The translations under genes and the position numbers were made by a program. Source: Acutalibacteraceae bacterium (lineage in GTDB: Bacteria > Bacillota > Clostridia > Oscillospirales > Acutalibacteraceae). Taken from it: DNA of 63,334 nt. The stretch spans positions 1 to 63,334 of the forward strand of contig JAZOVO010000094.1 in assembly GCA_045658745.1 (NCBI GenBank), in the 5' to 3' direction. The notes below the pieces were generated by a model. That model was given only the letters and a program-made list of their open reading frames with translations. It ran no database searches and was not told where the DNA came from. Of the stretch, positions 1,677 through 63,076 are shown one piece after another. Every line of letters begins with the position of its first letter. Within the stretch, counting starts at the first letter, position 1.

Positions 1677-1730
1677 AAAGTTCTTTTGGTTACTTTTCTT
1701 TCAAGAAAAGTAACGGCACGCGCCGAGCGA
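1677..1730 (+). repeat. Stop-proximal element type A (SPE-A): AAAGTTCTTTTGG + hairpin + CGCC..GGCGAGCGA
   Basis: Starts 7 nt after the ung stop, sense to ung. Hairpin GGTTACTTTTCTT/AAGAAAAGTAAC. Confidence 0.85.
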
Positions 1731-1751
1731 CAAATAAATATAATAAAAAAT

Positions 1752-1788
1752 AAAGTTCACGGAATTTATTTTTTTCCGTGAACTTTTA
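1752..1788. terminator. Bidirectional intrinsic terminator hairpin between ung and serA
   Basis: AAAGTTCACGGAA / TTCCGTGAACTTT 13-bp stem with an A-run upstream and T-run downstream. Centred between two inverted SPE-A copies. Confidence 0.6.
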
Positions 1789-1808
1789 TGTTGATAGAAT
1801 TTGTTTAA

Positions 1809-1858
1809 TGACCTCGCCGGTCGGGCGTTCTTTCTTGTAAGAAAGAACCAAAGAACTT
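1809..1858 (-). repeat. SPE-A copy (variant ending CGCCCGACCGGCGAGGTC)
   Basis: Ends 10 nt after the serA stop (minus strand), sense to serA. Hairpin GGTTCTTTCTT/AAGAAAGAACC. Confidence 0.85.
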
Positions 1859-1868
1859 TACTTGTTTT

Positions 1869-7504: not shown

Positions 7505-7558
7505 AAAGTTCTTTTGGTTACTTTTCTTTCAAGAAAAGTAACGGCACGCGCCGAGCGA
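7505..7558 (+). repeat. SPE-A copy
   Basis: Starts 6 nt after the ychF stop, sense orientation. Nearly identical to the copy at 1677. Confidence 0.85.
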
Positions 7559-8035: not shown

Positions 8036-8449
8036 ATGACTTGTACCTTTTTCGGTCACAGAGATACACCCGATAAAGTAGAAGCGCAGCTCAAAGCCGT
8101 GCTTGTTGAGCTTATAGAAAACGAAAAAGCCGATTTGTTTTTAGTAGGAAATAACGGGCGGTTTGATGCTATGGTGTACCGACTGCTCAGAACCTTGTCA
8201 GAGCAATATAAGATTAAGTATTATGTTGTTTCGGCTTATATAAATGAAAAAAATCACTATGAAAATTTAATTGTTGCAGACGGTTGTGAAACAGTGCCGC
8301 CGCGATTCGCAATACTGTACCGTAACAAGTGGATGCTCCGACGGGCTGATACAGTTATTACGTTTGTAGAGCATCCGTCGTCGGGCGCAGGCAAACTGAA
8401 AGCCCTTGCAGAAAAGCAGGGCAAAAGAGTTATAAACATATCAACTTGA
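8036..8449 (+). CDS. DUF1273 / SLOG-fold family protein (YoqJ-like)
   Basis: 137 aa. N-terminal TFFGHRD and LVGNNGRFD motifs are typical of DUF1273. RBS GAGGTG. Confidence 0.7.
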   Translation: MTCTFFGHRDTPDKVEAQLKAVLVELIENEKADLFLVGNNGRFDAMVYRLLRTLSEQYKIKYYVVSAYINEKNHYENLIVADGCETVPPRFAILYRNKWMLRRADTVITFVEHPSSGAGKLKALAEKQGKRVINIST

Positions 8450-8496
8450 AAAATACCGCCAAGGCTCTGCAAACCTTGACGGTAAAATTTATTTCA

Positions 8497-8550
8497 TCGC
8501 TCGCCGCGGGGCGTTACTTTTCTTGAAAGAAAAGTAACCAAAAGAACTTT
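8497..8550 (-). repeat. SPE-A copy
   Basis: Ends 5 nt from the stop of the minus-strand gene 8556-9095, sense to it. Confidence 0.85.
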
Positions 8551-15507: not shown

Positions 15508-15531
15508 GTAGTCAGGGTGGCGAAGCCCTTC

Positions 15532-15769
15532 AAATGCAAAGTGTAAAATGCAAAATGCAAAATGGAGGGTCGCTTCGCTCCGATTATATCCGCTTTAATG
15601 TTGTACTGAATTTCAGCATTACTCCACCTGACCACATTATGAATAAAATTATTATAATTTTCACACCTGCAGTTTAATGAAATCTGTATTTTGCGGGAAC
15701 AAAGTTTAATGTTTAACAAAACTGACCCGCGACCTTAATTTTGCATTTTGCACTTTGCATTTTGCATTT
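15532..15769 (+). mobile_element. MITE-like element with (AAATGC)n terminal inverted repeats, copy 1
   Basis: Left TIR AAATGCAAAGTGTAAAATGCAAAATGCAAAATG, right TIR its complement. Subterminal GGTCGC...GCGACC. Lies inside the apparent operon, between the reductase stop and the AcnX start. Confidence 0.8.
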
Positions 15770-15794
15770 AAAAATTATAAAGGAGAAACAACCT

Positions 15795-17539: not shown

Positions 17540-17592
17540 AAAAGTTTTTTGGTTACTTTTTTTCAAAAAAGTAACGCCCGACCGGCGAGGTC
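17540..17592 (+). repeat. SPE-A copy (variant ending CGCCCGACCGGCGAGGTC)
   Basis: Starts 7 nt after the AcnX small-subunit stop, sense orientation. Confidence 0.85.
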
Positions 17593-17610
17593 ATTAAACA
17601 AATTCATATC

Positions 17611-17665
17611 AAAAAAGTTAAGGTCACGGAATTCTTTATTATCTCCGTGACCTTATTTATTGTTT
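17611..17665. terminator. Bidirectional terminator hairpin between AcnX and ldh
   Basis: AAGGTCACGGA / TCCGTGACCTT stem with an A-run before and T-rich sequence after. Same architecture as 1752-1788. Confidence 0.6.
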
Positions 17666-17683
17666 TATTGTTTTATTGTTTTA

Positions 17684-17735
17684 TCGCTCGCCGCGGGGCT
17701 TTCTTTTCTTGGAAGAAAAGAAACAAAAGAACTTT
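17684..17735 (-). repeat. SPE-A copy
   Basis: Ends 8 nt from the ldh stop, sense to ldh. Hairpin stem variant TGTTTCTTTTCTT/AAGAAAAGAAAG. Confidence 0.85.
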
Positions 17736-19562: not shown

Positions 19563-19596
19563 AAAGAAGGGTCAACCGAAGGGTTGACCCTTCTTT
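19563..19596 (+). terminator. Intrinsic terminator hairpin after the tiny CDS
   Basis: AAAGAAGGGTCAACC-GAA-GGGTTGACCCTTCTTT, a ~15-bp stem. Confidence 0.7.
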
Positions 19597-19597
19597 G

Positions 19598-19824
19598 AAT
19601 GCAAAATGCAAAATGTAAAATGCAAAATGAATGGTCGCTTCGCTCCGTATTATACCCGTGTTAAGCTTGCTTTGATTTTTACAGCTTTACCGCAAAAGTG
19701 CGGGTAATTATAATTTACTGTTTCGAAATTGCATGAAATTTATTTATGCAGGTTACAGTTTACAGTTGTGCAAATCGTACCCCTCGACCGCAATTTTGCA
19801 TTTTGCATTTTTAATTTTGCATTT
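19598..19824 (+). mobile_element. (AAATGC)n-TIR MITE-like element, copy 2
   Basis: TIRs at 19598-19629 and 19793-19824. The right TIR overlaps the stop codon (19823-19825) of the deacetylase gene. Confidence 0.8.
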
Positions 19825-20854
19825 ATTTAACCAGCTCCGTCAGCGGCTTGAACGTATACCCTTCTGCACGTGCCTTGTCAATAATCTCGGGAAGGGCGGC
19901 GGCGTTGTCTCTTGAAACGCTGTGAAGAAGAATTACCGCACCGGGATGAAGCCGTGACATAACGGTTTTTACGGCGTAGTCCTTACCCTGAATTTTGTCC
20001 ACATTCCAGTCGTTATATGCAACGGACCAGAAAACGCTTACATAACCGAGCGCCGCAATCTGATCAAGGGCATTTTCCGTGTATTCGCCCGCGGGAAAGC
20101 GGAAAAATTTTGAGGCGTAGCCGTAATTCTTACGCAGGTAGTTTTCTGTTTCCTCAAGCTCCTTTGCAATTTTGTCACGGCTTATCGTTGCAAAGGAGGG
20201 GTGAGTTGCCGAGTGGTTGCCGACAATGTGCCCCTCGTTTATCATACGGCTGATGATTTGTGTTTCCTTTTCAATGTGGTCAAGGGTGCAGAAGAAGGCG
20301 GCAGGCACCTGCTTTTCCTTCAGAGTGTCGAGCACCGAGGCTGTGAGATTTTCATATTCGTAGCCGCAGTCAAAGGTAAGGTAAAGCACCTTTTCCTCGG
20401 TCACGGTGTCAAGGGTGAAGGCGGAAAAATCGTCGAAGCTCTCCTGAAAGGCAACGACGGTGTGATGTGGCTTCCCGCCCGAGGCAGGGCCGTGGGAGTG
20501 AGAAAGCTTTTCATCCGAAAGACGTCTGTCGCTTCTCGGGGCGGTTGCGGTCAGGGTGACTTCGGGCAAGGCGGAAAGTCCGCTTAAGGTGTCTGCGCCC
20601 GGCTGACCCTTTACTACAAGTCCGTTTTTTGTTATGGGATACCCCGTGAAGGTGCCCTCGGTATTGATTACCGTTGACTGGTTTATAGGCTGAGTCAGCT
20701 CCGTTACGGCGGGAGCCTTTGTCAGAGATGTACCCTGCTCGGTTGTACTGCCTGTGGGGAAGGTGACGGTGGTTTCCCCGCCCTTTGCTGTTTTTCCGCA
20801 GGCGCAAAGAAGGGTGAGGCTGAGGGCGAGTATAACTGAAAAAGCTTTTTTCAT
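19823..20854 (-). CDS. Polysaccharide deacetylase (NodB-domain) lipoprotein
   Basis: 343 aa. Lipobox LLCACG. NodB motifs FDCGYE and GNHSATHP. Confidence 0.8.
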   Translation of the reverse strand: MKKAFSVILALSLTLLCACGKTAKGGETTVTFPTGSTTEQGTSLTKAPAVTELTQPINQSTVINTEGTFTGYPITKNGLVVKGQPGADTLSGLSALPEVTLTATAPRSDRRLSDEKLSHSHGPASGGKPHHTVVAFQESFDDFSAFTLDTVTEEKVLYLTFDCGYEYENLTASVLDTLKEKQVPAAFFCTLDHIEKETQIISRMINEGHIVGNHSATHPSFATISRDKIAKELEETENYLRKNYGYASKFFRFPAGEYTENALDQIAALGYVSVFWSVAYNDWNVDKIQGKDYAVKTVMSRLHPGAVILLHSVSRDNAAALPEIIDKARAEGYTFKPLTELVK

Positions 20855-24330: not shown

Positions 24331-24363
24331 AAAAGTTTTGGTCAAGCTTTTACAAAAGCTTGC
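24331..24363 (+). repeat. Stop-proximal element type H (SPE-H): AAAAGTTTTGG + TCAAGCTTTT-AC-AAAAGCTTG hairpin
   Basis: Starts 6 nt after the GPH stop, sense orientation. Confidence 0.85.
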
Positions 24364-24364
24364 A

Positions 24365-24501
24365 GGGCATCGTCGCCGAAGCGCCGCCAGTGGCGGATGC
24401 AGCGAGGCGAGGATGGCGTAGCGGTCAAAATCGCTCGGCGCTACAAGCCGATAAGCGATTTTGGGAACCGCAAGAGAGCAGCGGGGGTGAAACCCCTTAC
24501 G
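24365..24501 (+). repeat. Family-B hairpin-rich element, copy 1
   Basis: GGGCATCGTCGCCGAAGCG-CCGCC-AGTG-GCGG-ATGC...AAAATCGCT..AGCGATTTT-GGGAACCGCAAGAG. Other copies at 25290 (-), 45679 (-) and 31575 (partial). Confidence 0.8.
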
Positions 24502-24513
24502 TGTTAAAAAATC

Positions 24514-24545
24514 ACACCGTCTTGAAAAAGGCGGTGTTTTTGTAT
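24514..24545 (+). terminator. Intrinsic terminator (ACACCG..CGGTGT module)
   Basis: ACACCGTC-TTGAAAAA-GGCGGTGT followed by TTTTTG. Confidence 0.65.
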
Positions 24546-24564
24546 TGGTTATTTTGCTTTTGTG

Positions 24565-24593
24565 TTGATTTTTTATTTGTTTTGTGGTATATT
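24565..24593 (+). promoter_or_regulatory. sigma-A-type promoter of hypothetical gene 24773
   Basis: TTGATT (24565-24570), 17-nt spacer, TATATT (24588-24593). Confidence 0.6.
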
Positions 24594-24597
24594 ATTC

Positions 24598-24750
24598 TTG
24601 CGACAACAAATCCGAATATTTTACCGACTCAGAGAAACACTTTGGAAAAAGTGTATCTCTTATTTTACTTCTCTTTGTCGGGTAGTAGGATTTGTGTCGC
24701 AACAAATGAGATGCATTTTTCGGTGTGTCTCTTTTGGGACACACTTTTTT
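24598..24750 (+). promoter_or_regulatory. Structured 5' leader ending in a terminator-like hairpin
   Basis: Long-range stem TTGCGACAACAAATCC (24598-24613) / GGATTTGTGTCGCAA (24688-24702). Inner hairpin AGAGAAACACTTT/AGTGTATCTCT. Then GTGTGTC-TCTTTTGG-GACACAC + TTTTTT (24723-24750), just before the RBS. Confidence 0.5.
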
Positions 24751-24772
24751 ATTTTTGCGGAGGTTGAAAACA

Positions 24773-25208: not shown

Positions 25209-25245
25209 ACCCCGTTTTGAATTCCAAAACGGGGTAATTTGTTTT
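25209..25245 (+). terminator. Intrinsic terminator after hypothetical gene
   Basis: ACCCCGTTTTG-AATTC-CAAAACGGGGT followed by AATTTGTTTT. Confidence 0.75.
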
Positions 25246-25410
25246 ATCGCTCGCCGCGGGGCGTCACTTTTCTTGTAAGGAAAGTAGTCCTCTTGCGGTT
25301 CCCAAAATTCATAACGGCTTGGAGCGCCTATGAATTTTGACCGCTGCGCCATCCTCGCCTCGCTGCATCCGCCACAGGCGGCGCTTCGGTGACGATGCCA
25401 AAAGAACTTT
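25243..25410 (-). repeat. Composite: SPE-A split by a family-B core (copy 2)
   Basis: Read on the minus strand after the ligase stop: AAAAGTTCTTTTGG | family-B core (25290-25399) | hairpin TACTTTCCTTACAAGAAAAGTGA + CGCCCCGCGGCGAGCGA. The B core sits between the SPE-A leader and its hairpin. Confidence 0.75.
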
Positions 25411-27741: not shown

Positions 27742-27748
27742 AGGGCCG

Positions 27749-27769
27749 AGTAGTCAGTAGTCAGTAGTC
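27749..27769 (+). repeat. (AGTAGTC)3 heptamer array
   Basis: Three perfect tandem heptamers followed by AGGG + hairpin. Same module at 31727, 37121 (degenerate), 43098 and 60425, plus a single unit at 15509. Confidence 0.8.
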
Positions 27770-27789
27770 AGGGATGCCTTCGGCGGGTT

Positions 27790-27876
27790 AAATGCAAAAT
27801 GCAAAATGCAAAATGCAAAATTATTGGTCGCTTCGCTCCGAATTGTAAGCGGACACGGCAAGCCGTGTCCCTACGG
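27790..27876 (+). mobile_element. Left-end fragment of the (AAATGC)n MITE fused to a CTAC-flanked hairpin
   Basis: (AAATGC)5 + GGTCGCTTCGCTCCG, then GCGGACACGGCAAGCCGTGTCCCTACGG. There is no right TIR; the sequence continues into the 430-nt core. Confidence 0.7.
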
Positions 27877-27885
27877 TAACTCATA

Positions 27886-28317
27886 CAACCCACGTCCGTC
27901 TGTACAACCTTGGAGGACGGATATATCTGAAAGCACCCACGGAGCGGATTGCGAATGTCGGGTACACGGTAGTTAAAAGGCTGGCGGAAAATTAGACGAT
28001 TGCGGATTTTGATAAACTCGACGGACGTAGCGGACTCATTGGTAGAAAGTATCCTTAAGCAGAGTTGTACGTGAGCTTTACCCTCGGGTAGAGCAGTAGT
28101 AATGTGAATTTTTCCGTCAGTGGGGACGTTGCAAGAACTACGGCGGTGGGATGAGGGGAGAAGTGTTACTCCTTTAATCACGGCAGATGCGGAAAAATTC
28201 ACCGCCACTGCGGACCTCCTCGACGGACCAAAGCGCGTTTTTGCTTACTTTTGTCGCAATCTACAAAAGTAAGTGCCGCCCGCACAGGGCTGTAGAACTA
28301 AAAAGCAACAACCGCGG
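27886..28317. repeat. ~430-nt conserved non-coding core, copy 1 (candidate structured RNA / non-autonomous element)
   Basis: Colinear with 31850-32279, 37328-37756 and 55736-56243, all in the same orientation. No conserved ORF. Compensatory hairpin substitutions between copies. Functional strand unknown. Confidence 0.85.
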
Positions 28318-28594: not shown

Positions 28595-28626
28595 GCAAGC
28601 TTTTGTAAAAGCTTGGCCAAAACTTT
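28595..28626 (-). repeat. SPE-H copy
   Basis: Sense to the minus-strand gene. The AAAGTTTTGG leader overlaps its TAA stop (28625-28627). Confidence 0.85.
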
Positions 28627-31722: not shown

Positions 31723-31849
31723 AGTTGTAGAGTAGTCAGTAGCCAGTAGTCAGGGAACGTCTGCGGCGTTTGGGGTTACCCTCTCCGTCACCCTGCGGGT
31801 GCCACCTCTCCCAAAGGGAGAGGCAAGTATACAACCCGCCCCACTCATT

Positions 31850-32279
31850 CATCCCACGTTCGTCTGTAGAACCTTGGAGGACGGATATATATAAAATAAC
31901 CCGCGGAGCGGATTGCGAATGTCGGGTACACGGTGGTTGAAGAGGTGGCAGAAAATTAGACGATTGCGGATTTTGATAAATATGACGGACGTAGCGGACT
32001 CATTTGTACAAATTATCCTTAAATAGAGTTGTACGTGAGCTTTACCCTCGGGTAGAGCAGTAGTAATGTGAATTTTTCCGTCAGTGGGGACGTTGCAAGA
32101 ACTACGGCGGTGGGATGAGGGGAGAAGTGTTAACCGTTATGAACAGGTTAATACGGAAAAATTCACCGCCACTGCGGACCTCCTCGTACAACCCAAGAGC
32201 GCTTTGCATACTTTGCCGCTCCGGGCAAAGTATGAGCCCCGCGGCTTGAGCGGGTAGAACATAAAAGAGGCAACCACGG
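31850..32279. repeat. ~430-nt conserved non-coding core, copy 2
   Basis: Shares the first 49 nt of the variable arm with copy 1, then diverges into its own hairpin TTAACC..GGTTAA. Confidence 0.85.
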
Positions 32280-32382
32280 AAGATGAAAAGCAACAACGTA
32301 AGGTTTAAAAAAATAGAACGTAAAAATAAGTAACCGCGTAAAATAAAAAAAGACGAAGGGGGCTCTGCCTCCCTCACCCTCC

Positions 32383-32414
32383 GCAAGCTTTTGTAAAAGC
32401 TTGACCAAAACTTT
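32383..32414 (-). repeat. SPE-H copy
   Basis: Ends 11 nt from the ATP-grasp gene stop, sense to it. On the minus strand it is followed by a GC hairpin and T-run (32345-32376). Confidence 0.85.
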
Positions 32415-37245: not shown

Positions 37246-37327
37246 ATTTAGGGTCGCTTCGCTCCGATTATATGCGGACACGGCAAGCCGTGTCCCTACG
37301 GTAGTCATACAACCACATCTACTCATT

Positions 37328-37756
37328 CAACCCACGTCCGTCTGTAGAACCTTGGAGGACGGATGATACTAAAACAACCCGCGTTAGCGGATTGCGAATG
37401 TCGGGTACACGGCAGTTAAAAGACCGGCAGAAAATTAGACGATTGCGGATTTTATTAAAAATGACGGACGTAGCGGACTCGTTGGTAGAGCTGACTCTTA
37501 AACAGAGTTGTCCGTGAGCTTTCTCCTCGCATAGAGCAGTAGTAATGTGAATTTTTCCGTTGGGTACAAGGTTATTTCCTTATCATTCTGCAGAAATTGA
37601 AGGCATTATGATTTAAGCAAACGTAACGGCGGAAAAATCCGCCGCCACTGCGGACCTCTTCGTACAACCCAAGAGCGCTTTGGTTACTTTGTCGCTCCGG
37701 ACAAAGTAACAGCCCCGCCGGCTTGAGGCGGTAGAACTTAGAAGCAATAGCCACGG
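37328..37756. repeat. ~430-nt conserved non-coding core, copy 3
   Basis: Same scaffold as copies 1 and 2, with an unrelated 66-nt variable arm (37564-37629). Confidence 0.85.
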
Positions 37757-37939
37757 ATGATTAAAAAGCGATAACGTAAGGTTTAAAAAGCAGAACGTGA
37801 AAGAAGAAGCAACCGCGTGAAATAAAAAGCAAAATACACGCCTTAACGGCGTAAAAAATACATATATATAATAGTATACGAAAAACACCGCCCTGGACTT
37901 CCAAAGCGGTGTCAGATTATATGCATTTAATAAACAAAT

Positions 37940-37958
37940 GAGGGGGCTCTGCCCCCTC
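37940..37958 (-). terminator. Intrinsic terminator of proS
   Basis: On the minus strand: GAGGGGGC-AGA-GCCCCCTC followed by ATTTGTTTATT. Confidence 0.6.
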
Positions 37959-37964
37959 ACCCCT

Positions 37965-37996
37965 GCAAGCTTTTGTAAAAGCTTGACCAAAACTTT
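37965..37996 (-). repeat. SPE-H copy
   Basis: Ends 18 nt from the proS stop, sense to proS. Confidence 0.85.
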
Positions 37997-39457: not shown

Positions 39458-39534
39458 AGGATTTTTTCCTTTCTTTTTTGTGTAAAAAACACGGGAAAAT
39501 TACATATATATAATAGTATACGAAAAATGCAAAA

Positions 39535-39760
39535 TGCAAAATGCAAAATGCAAAATTGTGGTCGCGGGATAGCTTTGTCTGATATAAAGCTTAACTGCCG
39601 CAAAATGCAGTTTTCAATTAACTGCAGGTGTACATATTATAATATATCAAGATAATATAGTTTGGCGGAATAATGTGACTTTTAAGTACAACATTAAAGC
39701 GGATATAATCGGAGCGAAGCGACCCTTCATTTTGCACTTTGCATTTTGCATTTTGCATTT
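39535..39760 (-). mobile_element. (AAATGC)n-TIR MITE-like element, copy 3 (inverted relative to copy 1)
   Basis: TIRs at 39535-39556 and 39728-39760. Subterminal GGTCGCGGG ... GGAGCGAAGCGACCC. Fills the ileS-proS intergenic region. Confidence 0.8.
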
Positions 39761-39779
39761 GAAGGGTCTTGCCCTGAAT

Positions 39780-43041: not shown

Positions 43042-43325
43042 GTGAGGCGAGGGCCGAGGGCCAAGGGCCAAAGGGCCGAGTGAAGGTGAGGTGTGATTTA
43101 AAGTAGTAAGTAGCCGGTAGTCAGTAGTAAGGATTGTCGCTTTGCGACAAAAGGATTTTGTAGGGCGGATATCAGCCGCACGCTGTACTCCTGACTTTTG
43201 GCACTCGGCCCTTGGCCCTTGGCCCTCGGCCCTCACTCCTTGCACTTGTTCGGAACTCGCCTCCTGATTTTTTGGCACTTGGTTCCTGATACTCGGCCCT
43301 TGGCCCTCGGCCCTCGGCCCTCCCC
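43042..43325. repeat. Long inverted repeat built from (GGCCCTY)n heptamers, with a duplicated right arm
   Basis: Left arm 43042-43082 is GTGAGGCGAGGGCCGAGGGCCAAGGGCCAAAGGGCCGAGTG. Right arm 43202-43236 is its complement. A second right-arm copy lies at 43291-43325. The loop carries an AGTAGTC-type array. Confidence 0.8.
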
Positions 43326-43381
43326 CCCTTGCATTTTCCTCCTCCTTGTGCTATATTTAACTCATAAAAGGAGATGTAACT

Positions 43382-45519: not shown

Positions 45520-45569
45520 AAAAGTTCTTTGGTTCTTTCTTACAAGAAAGAACGCCCCGCGGCGAGCGA
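45520..45569 (+). repeat. SPE-A copy
   Basis: Starts 5 nt after the sulfatase stop, sense orientation. Hairpin GGTTCTTTCTT/AAGAAAGAAC. Confidence 0.85.
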
Positions 45570-45678
45570 TAAAAAAATTTGATTATATAAAAACAAAGCC
45601 AACACTGAGTTTTCCGTGTTGGCTTGTTTGTTGTTATATCTGATAATTGTTAAGAGCAAGAGGGCTCTGCCCTCTGCT

Positions 45679-45789
45679 CTCTTGCGGTTCCCAAAATCGC
45701 CTATCGGCTTGTAGCGCCGAGCGATTTTGACCGCTACGCCATCCTCGCCTCGCTGCATCGTCCACAGGACGCGCTTTGGCGACGATGCC
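45679..45789 (-). repeat. Family-B element, copy 3
   Basis: Same order as copy 1 on the minus strand. The inner hairpin is CGTCC-TGTG-GACG instead of CCGCC-AGTG-GCGG (compensatory). Confidence 0.8.
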
Positions 45790-45790
45790 C

Positions 45791-45822
45791 GCAAGCTTTT
45801 GTAAAAGCTTGACCAAAACTTT
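45791..45822 (-). repeat. SPE-H copy
   Basis: Ends 14 nt from the stop of GPH paralogue 45837-47999, sense to it. Confidence 0.85.
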
Positions 45823-55735: not shown

Positions 55736-56243
55736 CAACCCACGTCCGTCTGTAGAACCTTGGAGAACGGGCGAATACCCCTCCGTCAAAATCGGAGATT
55801 TTGACACCTCCCCTTTCAGGGGAGGAAACCGTACAACCTCGGAGGACGGATGAAGCTGAAACAGCCCGCGGAGCGGATTGCGAATGTCGGGTACGCGGCA
55901 GTTAAAAGGCTGGCGGAAAATTAGACGATTGCGGATTTTAATAAACTCGTCGGACGTAGCGGACTCGTTTGTAGAATTGATTCTTAAATAGAGTTGTACG
56001 TGAGCTTTACCCTCGCATAGAGCAGTAGTAATGTGAATTTTTCCGTCAGTATTACGTGTGATTATTACGGCGGTACGATGAGATGAGAAGTCTTGTATTT
56101 ACGACCACGGCAGCTACGGAAAAATCCCCCGCCACTGCGGACCCCCGCGTAGAACTTAAGAGCGTTTTGGTTACTTTGCCGCTCCGGGCAAAGTAACAGC
56201 CCTGCCGGCTTGAGGCGGTAGAACCAAAAAGTCGTAACCACGG
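55736..56243. repeat. ~430-nt conserved non-coding core, copy 4 (with nested 79-nt module)
   Basis: 429 nt once 55771-55849 is removed. Own 67-nt variable arm (56050-56116). Confidence 0.85.
55771..55849. mobile_element. 79-nt multi-hairpin module inserted into core copy 4
   Basis: Near-identical to 31644-31722. The flanks GTAGAACCTTGGAGAACGG and GTACAACCTCGGAGGACGG look like a duplicated junction. Confidence 0.7.
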
Positions 56244-56300
56244 AGTATATAAAAAATAAATGTAAAAAACACCGCCTTTTTCAAGACGGTGTAAATTATT

Positions 56301-56349
56301 TCGCTCGCCGCGGGGCGTTCTTTCTTGTAAGAAAGAACCAAAGAACTTT
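56301..56349 (-). repeat. SPE-A copy
   Basis: Ends 21 nt from the gdhA stop, sense to gdhA. Confidence 0.85.
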
Positions 56350-56370: not shown

Positions 56371-57714
<1,344 letters not shown>

Positions 57715-58167: not shown

Positions 58168-58330
58168 AGTTAAGAGTAAGATACATTGTTTTGGTCATGC
58201 AGTGCGGGTCCTGTGCGACAGAACACCCCGAACCATGTCAGGCGGGAGACCGAGCAGCATTAAGGGGAATGTCTGTGCGACACAGCTACGCCTGCACTGT
58301 ATGACCGAGAAAAGGTGTCTTACTCTTTTT
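58168..58330 (+). ncRNA. ffs: Signal recognition particle RNA (small, 4.5S-like/short form)
   Basis: GAACCATGTCAGG...AGCAGCATTAAG matches the conserved domain-IV core as I remember it from Bacillus scRNA. Closing helices GGTCATGCAGTGC/GCACTGTATGACC and GAGTAAGA/TCTTACTC, then TTTTT. Directly upstream of dnaX, as in B. subtilis. Ends are approximate. Confidence 0.8.
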
Positions 58331-58551
58331 AAATGCAGAATTCAAAATGCAAAATGTAAAATTGCGGTCGCGGGCAAAGCTTGTGGCTGAAAATTACTGT
58401 GAGCTGCCGCACAGCAGCTTATGCATAACGGAAAGCTCCGTTAATTATAAAAATCCTCCCGTGGGAGGTGGCAGACCGAAGGTCTGGCGGAGGGCGCTAT
58501 AATGCGTCGCAGACCATTAATTTTGCACTTTGCATTTTGCATTTTGCATTT
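58331..58551 (-). mobile_element. (AAATGC)n-TIR MITE-like element, copy 4
   Basis: TIRs at 58331-58362 and 58520-58551. Subterminal GGTCGCGGG as in copy 3. Inserted between ffs and dnaX. Confidence 0.8.
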
Positions 58552-58593
58552 TCAAGCCATACGCATACTTAAAACAACAAAGGTGGGATAAAA

Positions 58594-60408: not shown

Positions 60409-60424
60409 GGTAGGGTATAATTTG

Positions 60425-60459
60425 AGTAGTCAGTAGTCAGTAGTCAGTAGTCAGTAGTC
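60425..60459 (+). repeat. (AGTAGTC)5 heptamer array
   Basis: Five perfect tandem heptamers starting 17 nt after the dnaX stop. Confidence 0.9.
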
Positions 60460-60462
60460 AGG

Positions 60463-60561
60463 ACCCCTCAGTCAGACCTGCGGTCTGACAGCTCCCTTTT
60501 CAGGGAAGCAAATAATTCTCTCCCCTGAAAGGGGAGGGGGACCGCGAAGCGGTGGAGGGGT
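60463..60561. repeat. Multi-hairpin module
   Basis: Outer stem ACCCCTC/GAGGGGT encloses four hairpins: AGTCAGACC-TGC-GGTCTGAC, CTCCC-TTTTC-AGGGA, CTCCCC-TGAAA-GGGGAG and ACCGC-GAA-GCGGT. Confidence 0.75.
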
Positions 60562-61547: not shown

Positions 61548-61601
61548 AAAGTTCTTTTGATTACTTTTCTTACAAGAAAAGTAACGCCCTGCGGCGAGCG
61601 A
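61548..61601 (+). repeat. SPE-A copy
   Basis: Starts 13 nt after the recR stop, sense orientation. Confidence 0.85.
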
Positions 61602-62078: not shown

Positions 62079-62546
62079 GTGGCAGTACAGCAGGACGAAA
62101 AACAAATCGTAGCGCAGAACAAAAAAGCAAGGCACGACTATTTTGTGCTTGAAACCTACGAGGCAGGCATTGAGCTTTTCGGCACGGAGGTCAAATCCAT
62201 CCGTAAGGGCAGGCTCAATTTAAAGGATGCCTGGTGCAGTATTGACGACGGAGAAATCTTCGTCAAGGGTATGCATATCAGCCCCTACGAGCAGGGCAAC
62301 ATTTTTAACCGTGACCCGATGAGAGTAAGACGACTTCTTATGCATAAGCGTGAAATCAACCGCCTTTTAGGCGTCACAAAGCAGCAGGGACTTACTCTTA
62401 TTCCCTTGAGTGTATATTTCCTCAAGGGCAGGGCAAAGCTTGAGGTAGGCCTGTGCAAGGGTAAAAAGCTTTACGACAAGCGCGAGGTTGCGGCGGAGAA
62501 GGACGCAAAGCGCAATATGGAGCGCAATTTCAAGGAAAGATATTAA
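62079..62546 (+). CDS. smpB: SsrA-binding protein SmpB
   Basis: 155 aa, GTG start. NKKARHDY and GTEVKS motifs. Followed by tmRNA. Confidence 0.95.
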
Positions 62547-62729: not shown

Positions 62730-63076
62730 GGGGATGAAAGGATTTCGACGGGGATCCTGAATCACGATAAGCGGGTAGTGGAGTGGCACCACTATAAAAG
62801 TCACACGTTTTAAAAATAAACGACAATACTACAGTTTTAAAGGCTGCTTAAAGCGGCCCGTCTTGGTTAAGAGTACTGCGGCTTAACTAAAGGCGTCGAT
62901 CAGCAGTGAACGTGAACGGCAGAGCGCCTTGTATGCCGTCATGCATCAAAGGCTACCAAGCCCTTAAGCCTGTCATTCGGCGTGAGGGTGAGGGAATGTT
63001 AAAAGACTGACTGCACCCGGAGAAGGTTGTGCGGATGGGTTTTCGGACGCGGTTTCGATTACCGCCATCTCCACCA
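62730..63076 (+). ncRNA. ssrA: tmRNA
   Basis: 5' end GGGGATGAAAGGATTTCGACGGGG and 3' end GGACGCGGTTTCGATTACCGCCATCTCCACCA. Tag reading frame ...GAC AAT ACT ACA GTT TTA AAG GCT GCT TAA (..DNTTVLKAA*). Confidence 0.95.

Follow-up and report, generated by a model that had tools for sequence, protein, structure and literature searches.

The DNA analysed here, called the window throughout, is a stretch of 63,334 nucleotides from an Acutalibacteraceae bacterium (contig JAZOVO010000094.1 of assembly GCA_045658745.1), and it carries 15 copies of a short repeated element that lies directly behind the stop codons of its genes. The element is modular: each unit runs from a T-rich leader through a perfect AT-rich hairpin (H1, with the loop T[T/A/C]CA) to a second hairpin, and in 15/15 copies the leader starts -2 to 21 nt past a stop codon, sense to the gene. 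Based on sequence reading and a generic scan for leader plus hairpin, we confirmed all 15 copies that a first-pass annotation had listed as stop-proximal and sense, and the scan of the window returned no extra copy and no antisense copy. All copies are intergenic, six on the plus strand and nine on the minus strand, and a copy is present at about half of the 3' ends of genes or operons in the window. The identities that had been assigned to the flanking genes were supported by Pfam matches to UDG, 2-Hacid_dh/ACT, YchF, AcnX swivel, Ldh, MFS_2 (twice), AMP-binding, PseudoU_synth_2, ATP-grasp, ProRS, sulfatase, ELFV dehydrogenase and RecR, and the HExxH motif of the remaining flanking protein is present as HEYGH.

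The copies belong to two classes, type A (n = 10, one of them split) and type B (n = 5), and include identical-sequence subfamilies of 3+3 copies. Type A consists, in this order, of the leader AAAGTT(C)TTT(T)G[G/T/A], H1 and a GC tail, which is CGCCCCGCGGCGAGCGA or a variant such as CGCCCGACCGGCGAGGTCA; the second hairpin (H2) of this type is a 3-4-bp stem with a GGCGA loop. The copy after ung (1677-1730, plus strand; stop codon at 1668-1670) has the leader AAAGTTCTTTTGG, the H1 GTTACTTTTCT/TTCA/AGAAAAGTAAC and the H2 tail CGGCACGCGCCGAGCGA, and the copy after serA (1809-1859, minus strand, 9 nt from TAA) has the H1 GTTCTTTCT/TACA/AGAAAGAAC and the CGCCCGACCGGCGAGGTCA tail. After ychF (7505-7558, plus strand, 5 nt from TAA) the element is followed by the terminator ACACCGCTTTGTTAAACAAGGCGGTGTTTTT. 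The terminator at about 8454-8484, beyond the copy that follows the gene of the HExxH (HEYGH) membrane protein (8497-8550, minus strand, 5 nt from TAA), also serves the convergent gene at 8036-8449, which itself has no copy. The copies after the AcnX swivel subunit (17541-17593, plus strand, 7 nt from TAA) and ldh (17684-17735, minus strand, 8 nt from TAA, H1 TTTCTTTTCT/TCCA/AGAAAAGAAA) form the left and right halves of a doublet. Further type A copies follow the sulfatase gene (45521-45569, plus strand, 5 nt from TAA, with a terminator at about 45592-45628), gdhA (56301-56349, minus strand, 21 nt past TAA, followed by the terminator ACACCGTCTTGAAAAAGGCGGTGTTTTTT) and recR (61548-61601, plus strand, 12 nt past TAA), the last being located between two co-directional genes with no terminator beyond. 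The split copy after the AMP-binding ligase gene (25243-25410, minus strand, 6 nt from TAA, terminator beyond) has its leader at 25398-25410 and its H1 and H2 at about 25243-25286, and a repeat of about 110 nt lies between them, directly past the GG of the leader.

Type B has the core AAAGTTTTGG[T/C]CAAGCTTTTACAAAAGCTTG and the hairpin AAAGTTTTGG[T/C]CAAGCTTTT-ACA-AAAAGCTTG, behind which comes a GC-rich hairpin or another nested repeat. Nested GC-rich repeats were found beyond the copies that follow the two MFS_2 transporter genes, in the first (24332-24362, plus strand, 6 nt from TAA) directly beyond the element and starting with GCATCGTCGCCGAAGCGC, and in the second (45792-45822, minus strand, 14 nt from TAA) at 45691-45789. 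At the pseudouridine synthase gene (28596-28626, minus strand) the leader overlaps the TAA and the element is followed by the terminator-like GC hairpin GAGGGGCAGAGCCCCTC and a T run; a GC hairpin and T run also follow the copies after the ATP-grasp gene (32384-32414, minus strand, 11 nt from TGA) and proS (37966-37996, minus strand, 18 nt from TAA).

Along the window, the successive distances between stop codon and leader are 6, 9, 5, 5, 7, 8, 6, 6, -2, 11, 18, 5, 14, 21 and 12 nt. We compared this placement with a position null that took 43 genes as credible and 14 kb as intergenic, and in which 3.8% of the oriented intergenic positions are favourable, and obtained P ~6e-22 for 15/15, with 3e-5 for orientation alone. 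A pattern of 23 specified bases matched the window 7 times and none of 100 shuffles, while the bare 13-mer leader with 2 mismatches gave 14 matches against 9.8 expected, which is not significant by itself. As TAA is the usual stop codon of the source genome, the bias to TAA is uninformative on the element.

The hairpins vary in sequence and stay paired. Nearly all of the 129 distinct H1 variants that were collected are perfect palindromes with almost no wobble pairs; mismatches amount to a handful across about 26 distinct Clostridia stems and to four across 219 Acetobacteraceae copies, and the distal stem bases, which the search pattern leaves unspecified, are complementary in almost every copy. 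H2 has the loop GGCGA (or GCCGA/GGTGA) on a covarying 3-4-bp stem, for which the pairs CGC/GCG, GACC/GGTC, GTCC/GGAC, ATGC/GCAT and GCGC/GCGC were seen. In an alignment of 11 distinct H2 sequences 86% of the cells are paired and both sides have changed in 3/4 pairs. The covariation score was matched by 0/500 shuffles, and where pairing departs from Watson-Crick, in two pairs, it is U-G as read on the sense strand. The leader varies in step with H1: the number of T residues between its C and G equals the number between the C residues of the 5' arm (3, 4, 5 or 6), as in AAGTTCTTTG with GTTCTTTCT, AAGTCTTTTTG with CTTCTTTTTC and AAGTCTTTTG with CTTCTTTTC. The leader is therefore an imperfect direct repeat of the 5' arm; it could pair with the 3' arm in place of the 5' arm, or be a third copy of a protein-binding box. 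A pyrimidine-motif triple helix between leader and H1 was dropped on sequence inspection because the register leaves a 3-bp offset with hardly any linker, and mini-ORFs (open reading frames) on the reverse strand and consensus sites for LexA, CodY, Xer/dif and attC were likewise dropped after inspection.

A unique, terminator-like GC-rich hairpin with a T run is located 10-25 nt downstream of most copies in the window. The usual order is thus stop codon, element, terminator, so that the element is necessarily co-transcribed and part of the 3' untranslated region (UTR). H1 itself does not have the form of an intrinsic terminator, being AT-rich and followed by a GC tail instead of a T run, and only in three type B copies (28566, 32350 and 37930) is the element's own second hairpin terminator-like, with a T run behind it. 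Compared with shuffled sequence, the elements fold far more stably (z from -3.4 to -5.2). The doublets that had been described at ung/serA and AcnX/ldh are real: the first (1677-1859) is 183 bp long with its leaders outward around a shared terminator hairpin at about 1753-1785, the second (17541-17735) is 195 bp long with its leaders outward around a shared hairpin, and the 183-bp doublet folds with -67 kcal/mol (z = -7.7).

YchF of the window is 91-98% identical to proteins of metagenome-assembled genomes labelled 'Clostridia / Ruminococcaceae / Acutalibacteraceae', which places the window in a gut or rumen member of the Clostridia (Oscillospiraceae/Acutalibacteraceae-like) and not in the Bacteroidales. 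Copies were located by nhmmer in the ychF neighbourhoods of ten distinct relatives (154 kb; fetched loci carry numbers with the prefix L). This gave 16 further leader-bearing copies, and 16/16 lie -2 to 12 nt past a sense stop, by which the bias in orientation and distance claimed for the window was found to hold outside it. Since the rule generalises from 15/15 to 16/16 copies, something non-random fixes the orientation. The leader overlaps the TAA also in L119, as it does at position 28626 of the window.

The genes next to the element (ung, serA, ychF, ldh, proS, gdhA, recR) are core housekeeping genes in conserved synteny, and their 3' ends are occupied in several ways. The site after ychF holds type A in the window, type B in L119 and L130 (in L119 together with a nested repeat), a leader lacking H1 in L361 and L131, an unrelated repeat in L126, and just a bare terminator in L359 and L366 (98% YchF identity), L121 and L124. 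Across the relatives serA is followed by types A, B, B, B or none, AcnX by type A or type B, and ung by either of two type A subfamilies, by a remnant consisting of the tail alone, or by none. Behind the HExxH gene the H1 is different in each of five genomes, the changes being compensatory substitutions and paired deletions, and the terminator beyond these copies is clearly orthologous across the five. In L361 the same GC-rich insertion of about 48 nt lies inside H1 both after the HExxH gene (L361:1351-1480) and after ung (L361:8480-8600); from this it follows that a composite was copied from one locus to another. Taken together, the turnover and the copied composites indicate that copies are gained, lost and replaced through transposition or gene conversion, and they do not fit a signal belonging to each gene.

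A related mini-hairpin was seen to differ between strains. L361:5095-5204 (also L362, L363 and L365) and L364:1342-1418 have identical YchF and differ by a 33-nt segment, CTGTCTTTTTGCTTTTCAAAAAGACTGAGGGAG, a 9-bp AT hairpin with the 9-nt direct repeat CTGAGGGAG at its sides. This indel is a clean strain-level gain or loss, and the duplication resembles a target site.

Additionally, one genome per species was scanned with the 23-base pattern, which gave at least 118 loci, mostly from Acetobacteraceae/Rhodospirillales at 60-74% GC and some from Clostridia and Bacteroidales; a scan of viral contigs gave 101 loci and a scan of metagenomes at least 120. The pattern search itself imposes part of the apparent conservation across taxa, and a few of the long-pattern database matches (L146, L171, L333) are not hairpins at all. 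Not imposed by the pattern are the complementarity of the distal stem, the near-complete perfection of the 129 H1 variants and the multicopy occurrence within genomes. Among plasmid records searched by BLAST, a 40-nt unit, CTTGAACTTTTGGTTACTTTTCTTTCAAGAGAAAAGTAAC, is identical at 40/40 positions between Ilyobacter polytropus (L133:1495-1535, pILYOP01) and Parabacteroides distasonis (L134:2495-2534, plasmid 9), and related units were found in Bacteroides uniformis, Pseudoroseomonas and Aureibacter. The unit occurs at 15 places on the 0.96-Mb replicon of Ilyobacter, and in both Ilyobacter and Parabacteroides it follows a GC-rich stretch with GAGCGAAGCGAG-like words. Judged by these pattern and BLAST matches, the module of leader and hairpin spans at least four phyla, represented by Clostridia, Bacteroidota, Fusobacteriota and Acetobacteraceae. 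A match to a consensus of 23 specified bases is very unlikely in unrelated families, and the families are therefore related by descent, transfer or shared constraint. The element strings had no match in the INPHARED phage collection or in E. coli genomes, and the literal sequence strings were not found in the literature searched.

In Acetobacteraceae the module forms the ends of an inverted doublet of about 150 bp, AAGCAAGC-H1'-CCAAAAAACTTTTG-[GC-rich core]-CAAAAGTTTTTTGG-H1-GCTTGCTT, with the leaders inward; there are 126 such pairs among 371 module matches, counted among the matches listed. Here it is the tail or hairpin side that abuts the stop codon of the neighbouring gene (76 cases among the matches listed, median 17.5 nt), and singletons near a stop turn the tail side to it 29 times and the leader side twice, again among the matches listed. 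In other low-GC lineages the tail side is mostly toward the stop as well. Polarity relative to the gene is strong everywhere, and its direction is not the same everywhere. The first-pass annotation had considered a function of the order stop-leader-hairpin on the mRNA or in translation termination; in these lineages the opposite end usually faces the stop, which argues against a universal mechanism of this kind. The module was also found directly upstream of start codons (L172, L327, L134), and one copy (L045:3764-3792) is located in an rRNA operon of an alphaproteobacterium, where it lies between the two tRNA genes of the 16S-23S spacer.

The closest known kind of element is the class of repetitive extragenic palindromic sequences (REPs), bacterial interspersed mosaic elements (BIMEs) and REP doublets forming hairpins (REPINs). 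According to Di Nocera et al. (PMC3733652), GTAG- and CGTC-tagged REPs are mostly found where neighbouring ORFs converge or run in the same direction, no more than 20 bp from the 3' end of the upstream ORF; they may stand alone or be paired head to head or tail to tail, and they can supply the stop codon with their tag end. All these published placement properties are reproduced by the element, and its H1 of 22-27 nt falls in the 20-40-bp palindrome range of the REP definition. It shares with this class a short palindrome with an asymmetric 'tag' side, high copy number, an extragenic position, co-transcription with the upstream gene and the presence of subfamilies within one genome (PMC3733652, PMC3116915). 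As REP families are already stop-proximal (PMC3733652), stop proximity alone implies no special function. The earlier argument that random REP insertion would not give the observed orientation stands (15/15 and 16/16). Unlike REPs, the element is AT-rich even in genomes of 65-70% GC, has a 13-nt leader that directly repeats a hairpin arm as well as an extra H2, and is strictly polar relative to the gene as a singleton.

Other systems share single features with the element. Integron attC sites are similar in being imperfect palindromes directly past a stop codon, in fixed orientation to the ORF, with the structure kept while the sequence varies, and they function as a folded single strand; the element, in contrast, flanks core housekeeping genes in conserved synteny and not cassettes, it lacks the RYYYAAC/GTTRRRY core sites, and no integrase is present. 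Palindrome-associated transposable elements (PATEs) derived from IS200/IS605 also have subterminal perfect hairpins without classical terminal inverted repeats or target duplications, and their recognition is by structure, so that compensatory changes in the stem would be tolerated. Unlike in these PATEs, the polarity of the element follows the gene on both strands within 63 kb and not the direction of replication. Correia/NEMIS in Neisseria, ERIC/IRU in enterobacteria and bcr1 in the Bacillus cereus group are transcribed MITEs (miniature inverted-repeat transposable elements) that modulate the adjacent mRNAs. Like the element, they are small, non-coding inverted-repeat elements near gene ends and in UTRs that form long hairpins and show presence/absence polymorphism between strains, and their effects on mRNA depend on orientation. 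These MITEs are 100-160 bp long, their terminal inverted repeats are defined and accompanied by target duplications, and each is known only from one genus or family, whereas the unit of the element is 30-55 nt, inverted termini occur in its doublets only, no target duplication was found for it, and its core module crosses phyla.

We consider it about 60% probable that the element is a modular REP/MITE-like hairpin repeat that sits between the stop codon and the terminator, with a folded single strand as its route of spread. The data indicate that it would then not be a dedicated signal belonging to each gene, and the alternative already raised in the first-pass annotation, a mobile element with a specific target, fits better than a fixed signal to the gain, loss and replacement of copies, the nested insertions and the copied composites. 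From the perfect stems and the covarying 3-bp H2 we infer that spread would take place on a folded single strand, through a trans-acting enzyme or gene conversion. The fixed polarity may come from strand-specific insertion, for example into a non-template strand exposed ahead of the terminator, or, also in combination, from selection on the transcript, where only such a placement and polarity would be tolerated. Resident hairpins may act as exonuclease barriers in the 3' UTR or as processing sites, as has been proposed for classical REPs.

Several observations weigh against a mobile repeat, beginning with polarity itself, for which strand-specific insertion is conjectural and which, together with the occupation of the same genes in several species, could equally reflect functional selection. 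The leader has neither GTAG/CTAC nor CGTC/GACG in any subfamily. There is no transposase and no REP-associated tyrosine transposase (RAYT) in the window or in the 154 kb of relatives, and no protein family recurs beside the modules in 2.7 Mb of fetched loci. In a guilt-by-association analysis, 1322 ORFs within 1.5 kb of modules were clustered; these clusters contained no transposase family, and the largest consisted of paralogous ABC ATPases and not of an orthologous locus. Between inverted module pairs 200-4000 nt apart the ORFs are ordinary genes, no autonomous copy was present among 357 loci, and neither a Y1 transposase nor TnpB was linked to the module among the fetched loci. When E. coli RayT was compared with the 2.7 Mb by tblastn, it gave a single match in an Acetobacteraceae locus (L025:2500-3170, 50% identity), and this RAYT is flanked by inverted GTAGGGTGGGGTGC...GCACCCCACCCTAC GTAG REPs and not by the AT-rich module; a classical REP/RAYT system therefore coexists with the module in one genome. 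No target-site duplication could be defined for the window copies or for 112 Acetobacteraceae doublets, the flanks showing only the element's own AAGNAAGN tail.

The same features can be read as those of a selected 3'-UTR RNA element, in which the fold of leader, H1 and H2 would work at the level of the mRNA, for example by blocking 3' exonucleases, by being processed by an RNase, by binding an RNA-binding protein or as a switch that responds to translation, with leader and 5' arm competing for the 3' arm; repetition would then reflect the recruitment of a useful module, and such a role may coexist with a mobile repeat. The position in the transcribed gap between stop and terminator, always sense, is as this proposal would have it, as are the covariation of H2 in the manner of a single strand with its kept GGCGA loop and sense-strand U-G pairs, a leader-arm covariation that permits two mutually exclusive pairings, the occupation of about half of the gene or operon ends of the window and of the same genes in several species, and folds far more stable than shuffled sequence. 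Close relatives are nevertheless empty at the same genes with no obvious compensation (L359, L366, L121, L124), H1 is nearly free of G-U pairs, unlike typical RNA families, other clades turn the opposite end of the module to the stop, and the module is elsewhere found in 5' regions and in an rRNA spacer as well. There was also no Rfam match: with Rfam 15 the window gave only transfer-messenger RNA (tmRNA) and signal recognition particle (SRP) RNA, scans of the window and of loci from four phyla at the gathering threshold and at E<=1 gave only tmRNA, SRP RNA, rRNA and tRNA, and the modules in other taxa matched nothing even at E<=1. We regard a selected RNA element as possible, although clearly on the doubtful side. 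Slightly more tentative is the idea that the leader and the T[T/A/C]CA-loop hairpin are what is recognised by an undescribed system, shared across phyla, whose substrate is a single strand in folded form; it would have been overlooked because the copies are so short and AT-rich. One possibility would be a non-RAYT class of single-stranded DNA mobilisation with strand-specific insertion at gene ends, the other a widely kept RNA element of gene boundaries in which the covariation of leader, 5' arm and 3' arm encodes a conformational switch.

A protein-binding site in duplex DNA appears improbable. It would consist of three boxes of about 9 bp (leader, 5' arm and inverted 3' arm) bound by a recombinase, a transposase end-binding protein or a nucleoid protein, in a layout that recalls FRT or attI with an inverted pair and an extra direct repeat. 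A leader that directly repeats the 5' arm and changes with it across subfamilies would suit such a site, and so would the perfect palindromes and the use of the module as inverted termini of the Acetobacteraceae doublets of about 150 bp. Against this, several box variants coexist in one genome and even in one doublet, so that several cognate proteins would be required; no associated protein was found beside the modules in the 2.7 Mb of loci, the attC and Xer consensus is absent on inspection, and a covarying 3-bp H2 stem makes no sense as duplex DNA. That the copies are an artefact of chance or low complexity, arising from T runs and A runs near AT-rich gene ends, is effectively refuted: although the 13-mer leader with 2 mismatches is not enriched over shuffled sequence and the few long-pattern matches mentioned above are not hairpins, the 23-base pattern stands at 7 vs 0, the unspecified stem bases are still complementary and the placement has P ~6e-22.

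Stop proximity is what is expected for REP-type repeats; what is new is the polarity, the covariation of leader and arm and the spread across phyla. The element is unusual in the absence of the tag and of a linked RAYT, in being AT-rich in GC-rich hosts, and in its direct-repeat leader, covarying H2 and strict polarity as a singleton. If polarity is set at insertion, such elements could expose a mechanism of transposition or gene conversion that reads the direction of transcription at gene ends, and they would provide a natural marker of 3'-UTR boundaries in poorly studied rumen and gut Clostridia. If it comes from selection, about half of the mRNAs of this organism would have a common 3'-UTR structure, which would offer a handle on mRNA decay or termination in a group without genetics. 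It also raises the question of how a 35-nt AT-rich hairpin spreads or persists across phyla with no obvious enzyme. In practice the repeats break assemblies, seed spurious ORF calls (24360-24767 and 27768-28208 are examples) and confound the prediction of terminators.

Other repeats are nested in the element or lie near it. The GC-rich repeat of about 110 nt (GCATCGTCGCCGAAGCGC...TTTTGGGAACCGCAAGAGG) is present at about 24366-24480 (plus strand), 25287-25397 (minus strand) and 45691-45789 (minus strand), nested in or directly past copies of the element and always inserted after GG(G); it was also found after ychF in L119, and a longer relative lies in the ldh copy of L119. A repeat of about 400-430 nt has four copies of 81-89% identity (27879-28241, 31843-32291, 37322-37767 and 55808-56254), with no match in Pfam or Rfam. 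Each is located just downstream of an element-bearing 3' end (those of the pseudouridine synthase gene, the ATP-grasp gene, proS and gdhA), and spurious ORFs such as 27768-28208 and 37613-37990 sit on this repeat. Elements of about 200-240 nt (15530-15770, 19595-19825, 39511-39761 and 58331-58552; also 27788-27850) end in inverted tandem heptamers, (AAATGCA)3-4 ... (TGCATTT)3-4, and relatives have arrays of other heptamers (GGGCCAA, AATTCCG, CTGACTA) at the equivalent place upstream of ychF. Heptamer arrays of (AGTAGTC)n and (GGCCCTY)n in spacers (27742-27774, 31730-31756, 43102-43134 and 60418-60464; 43189-43341) probably belong to the same class.

The gdhA gene (56379-57714, minus strand) has an in-frame TAA at codon 360 (56635-56637), after which the frame is intact to the normal C terminus; this is a nonsense mutation or pseudogene, a sequencing error or possibly a recoded stop. 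The tmRNA of the window (62730-63076, 147.7 bits) lies directly past smpB (62079-62546), and its small SRP RNA is located at 58202-58300 (53.5 bits).

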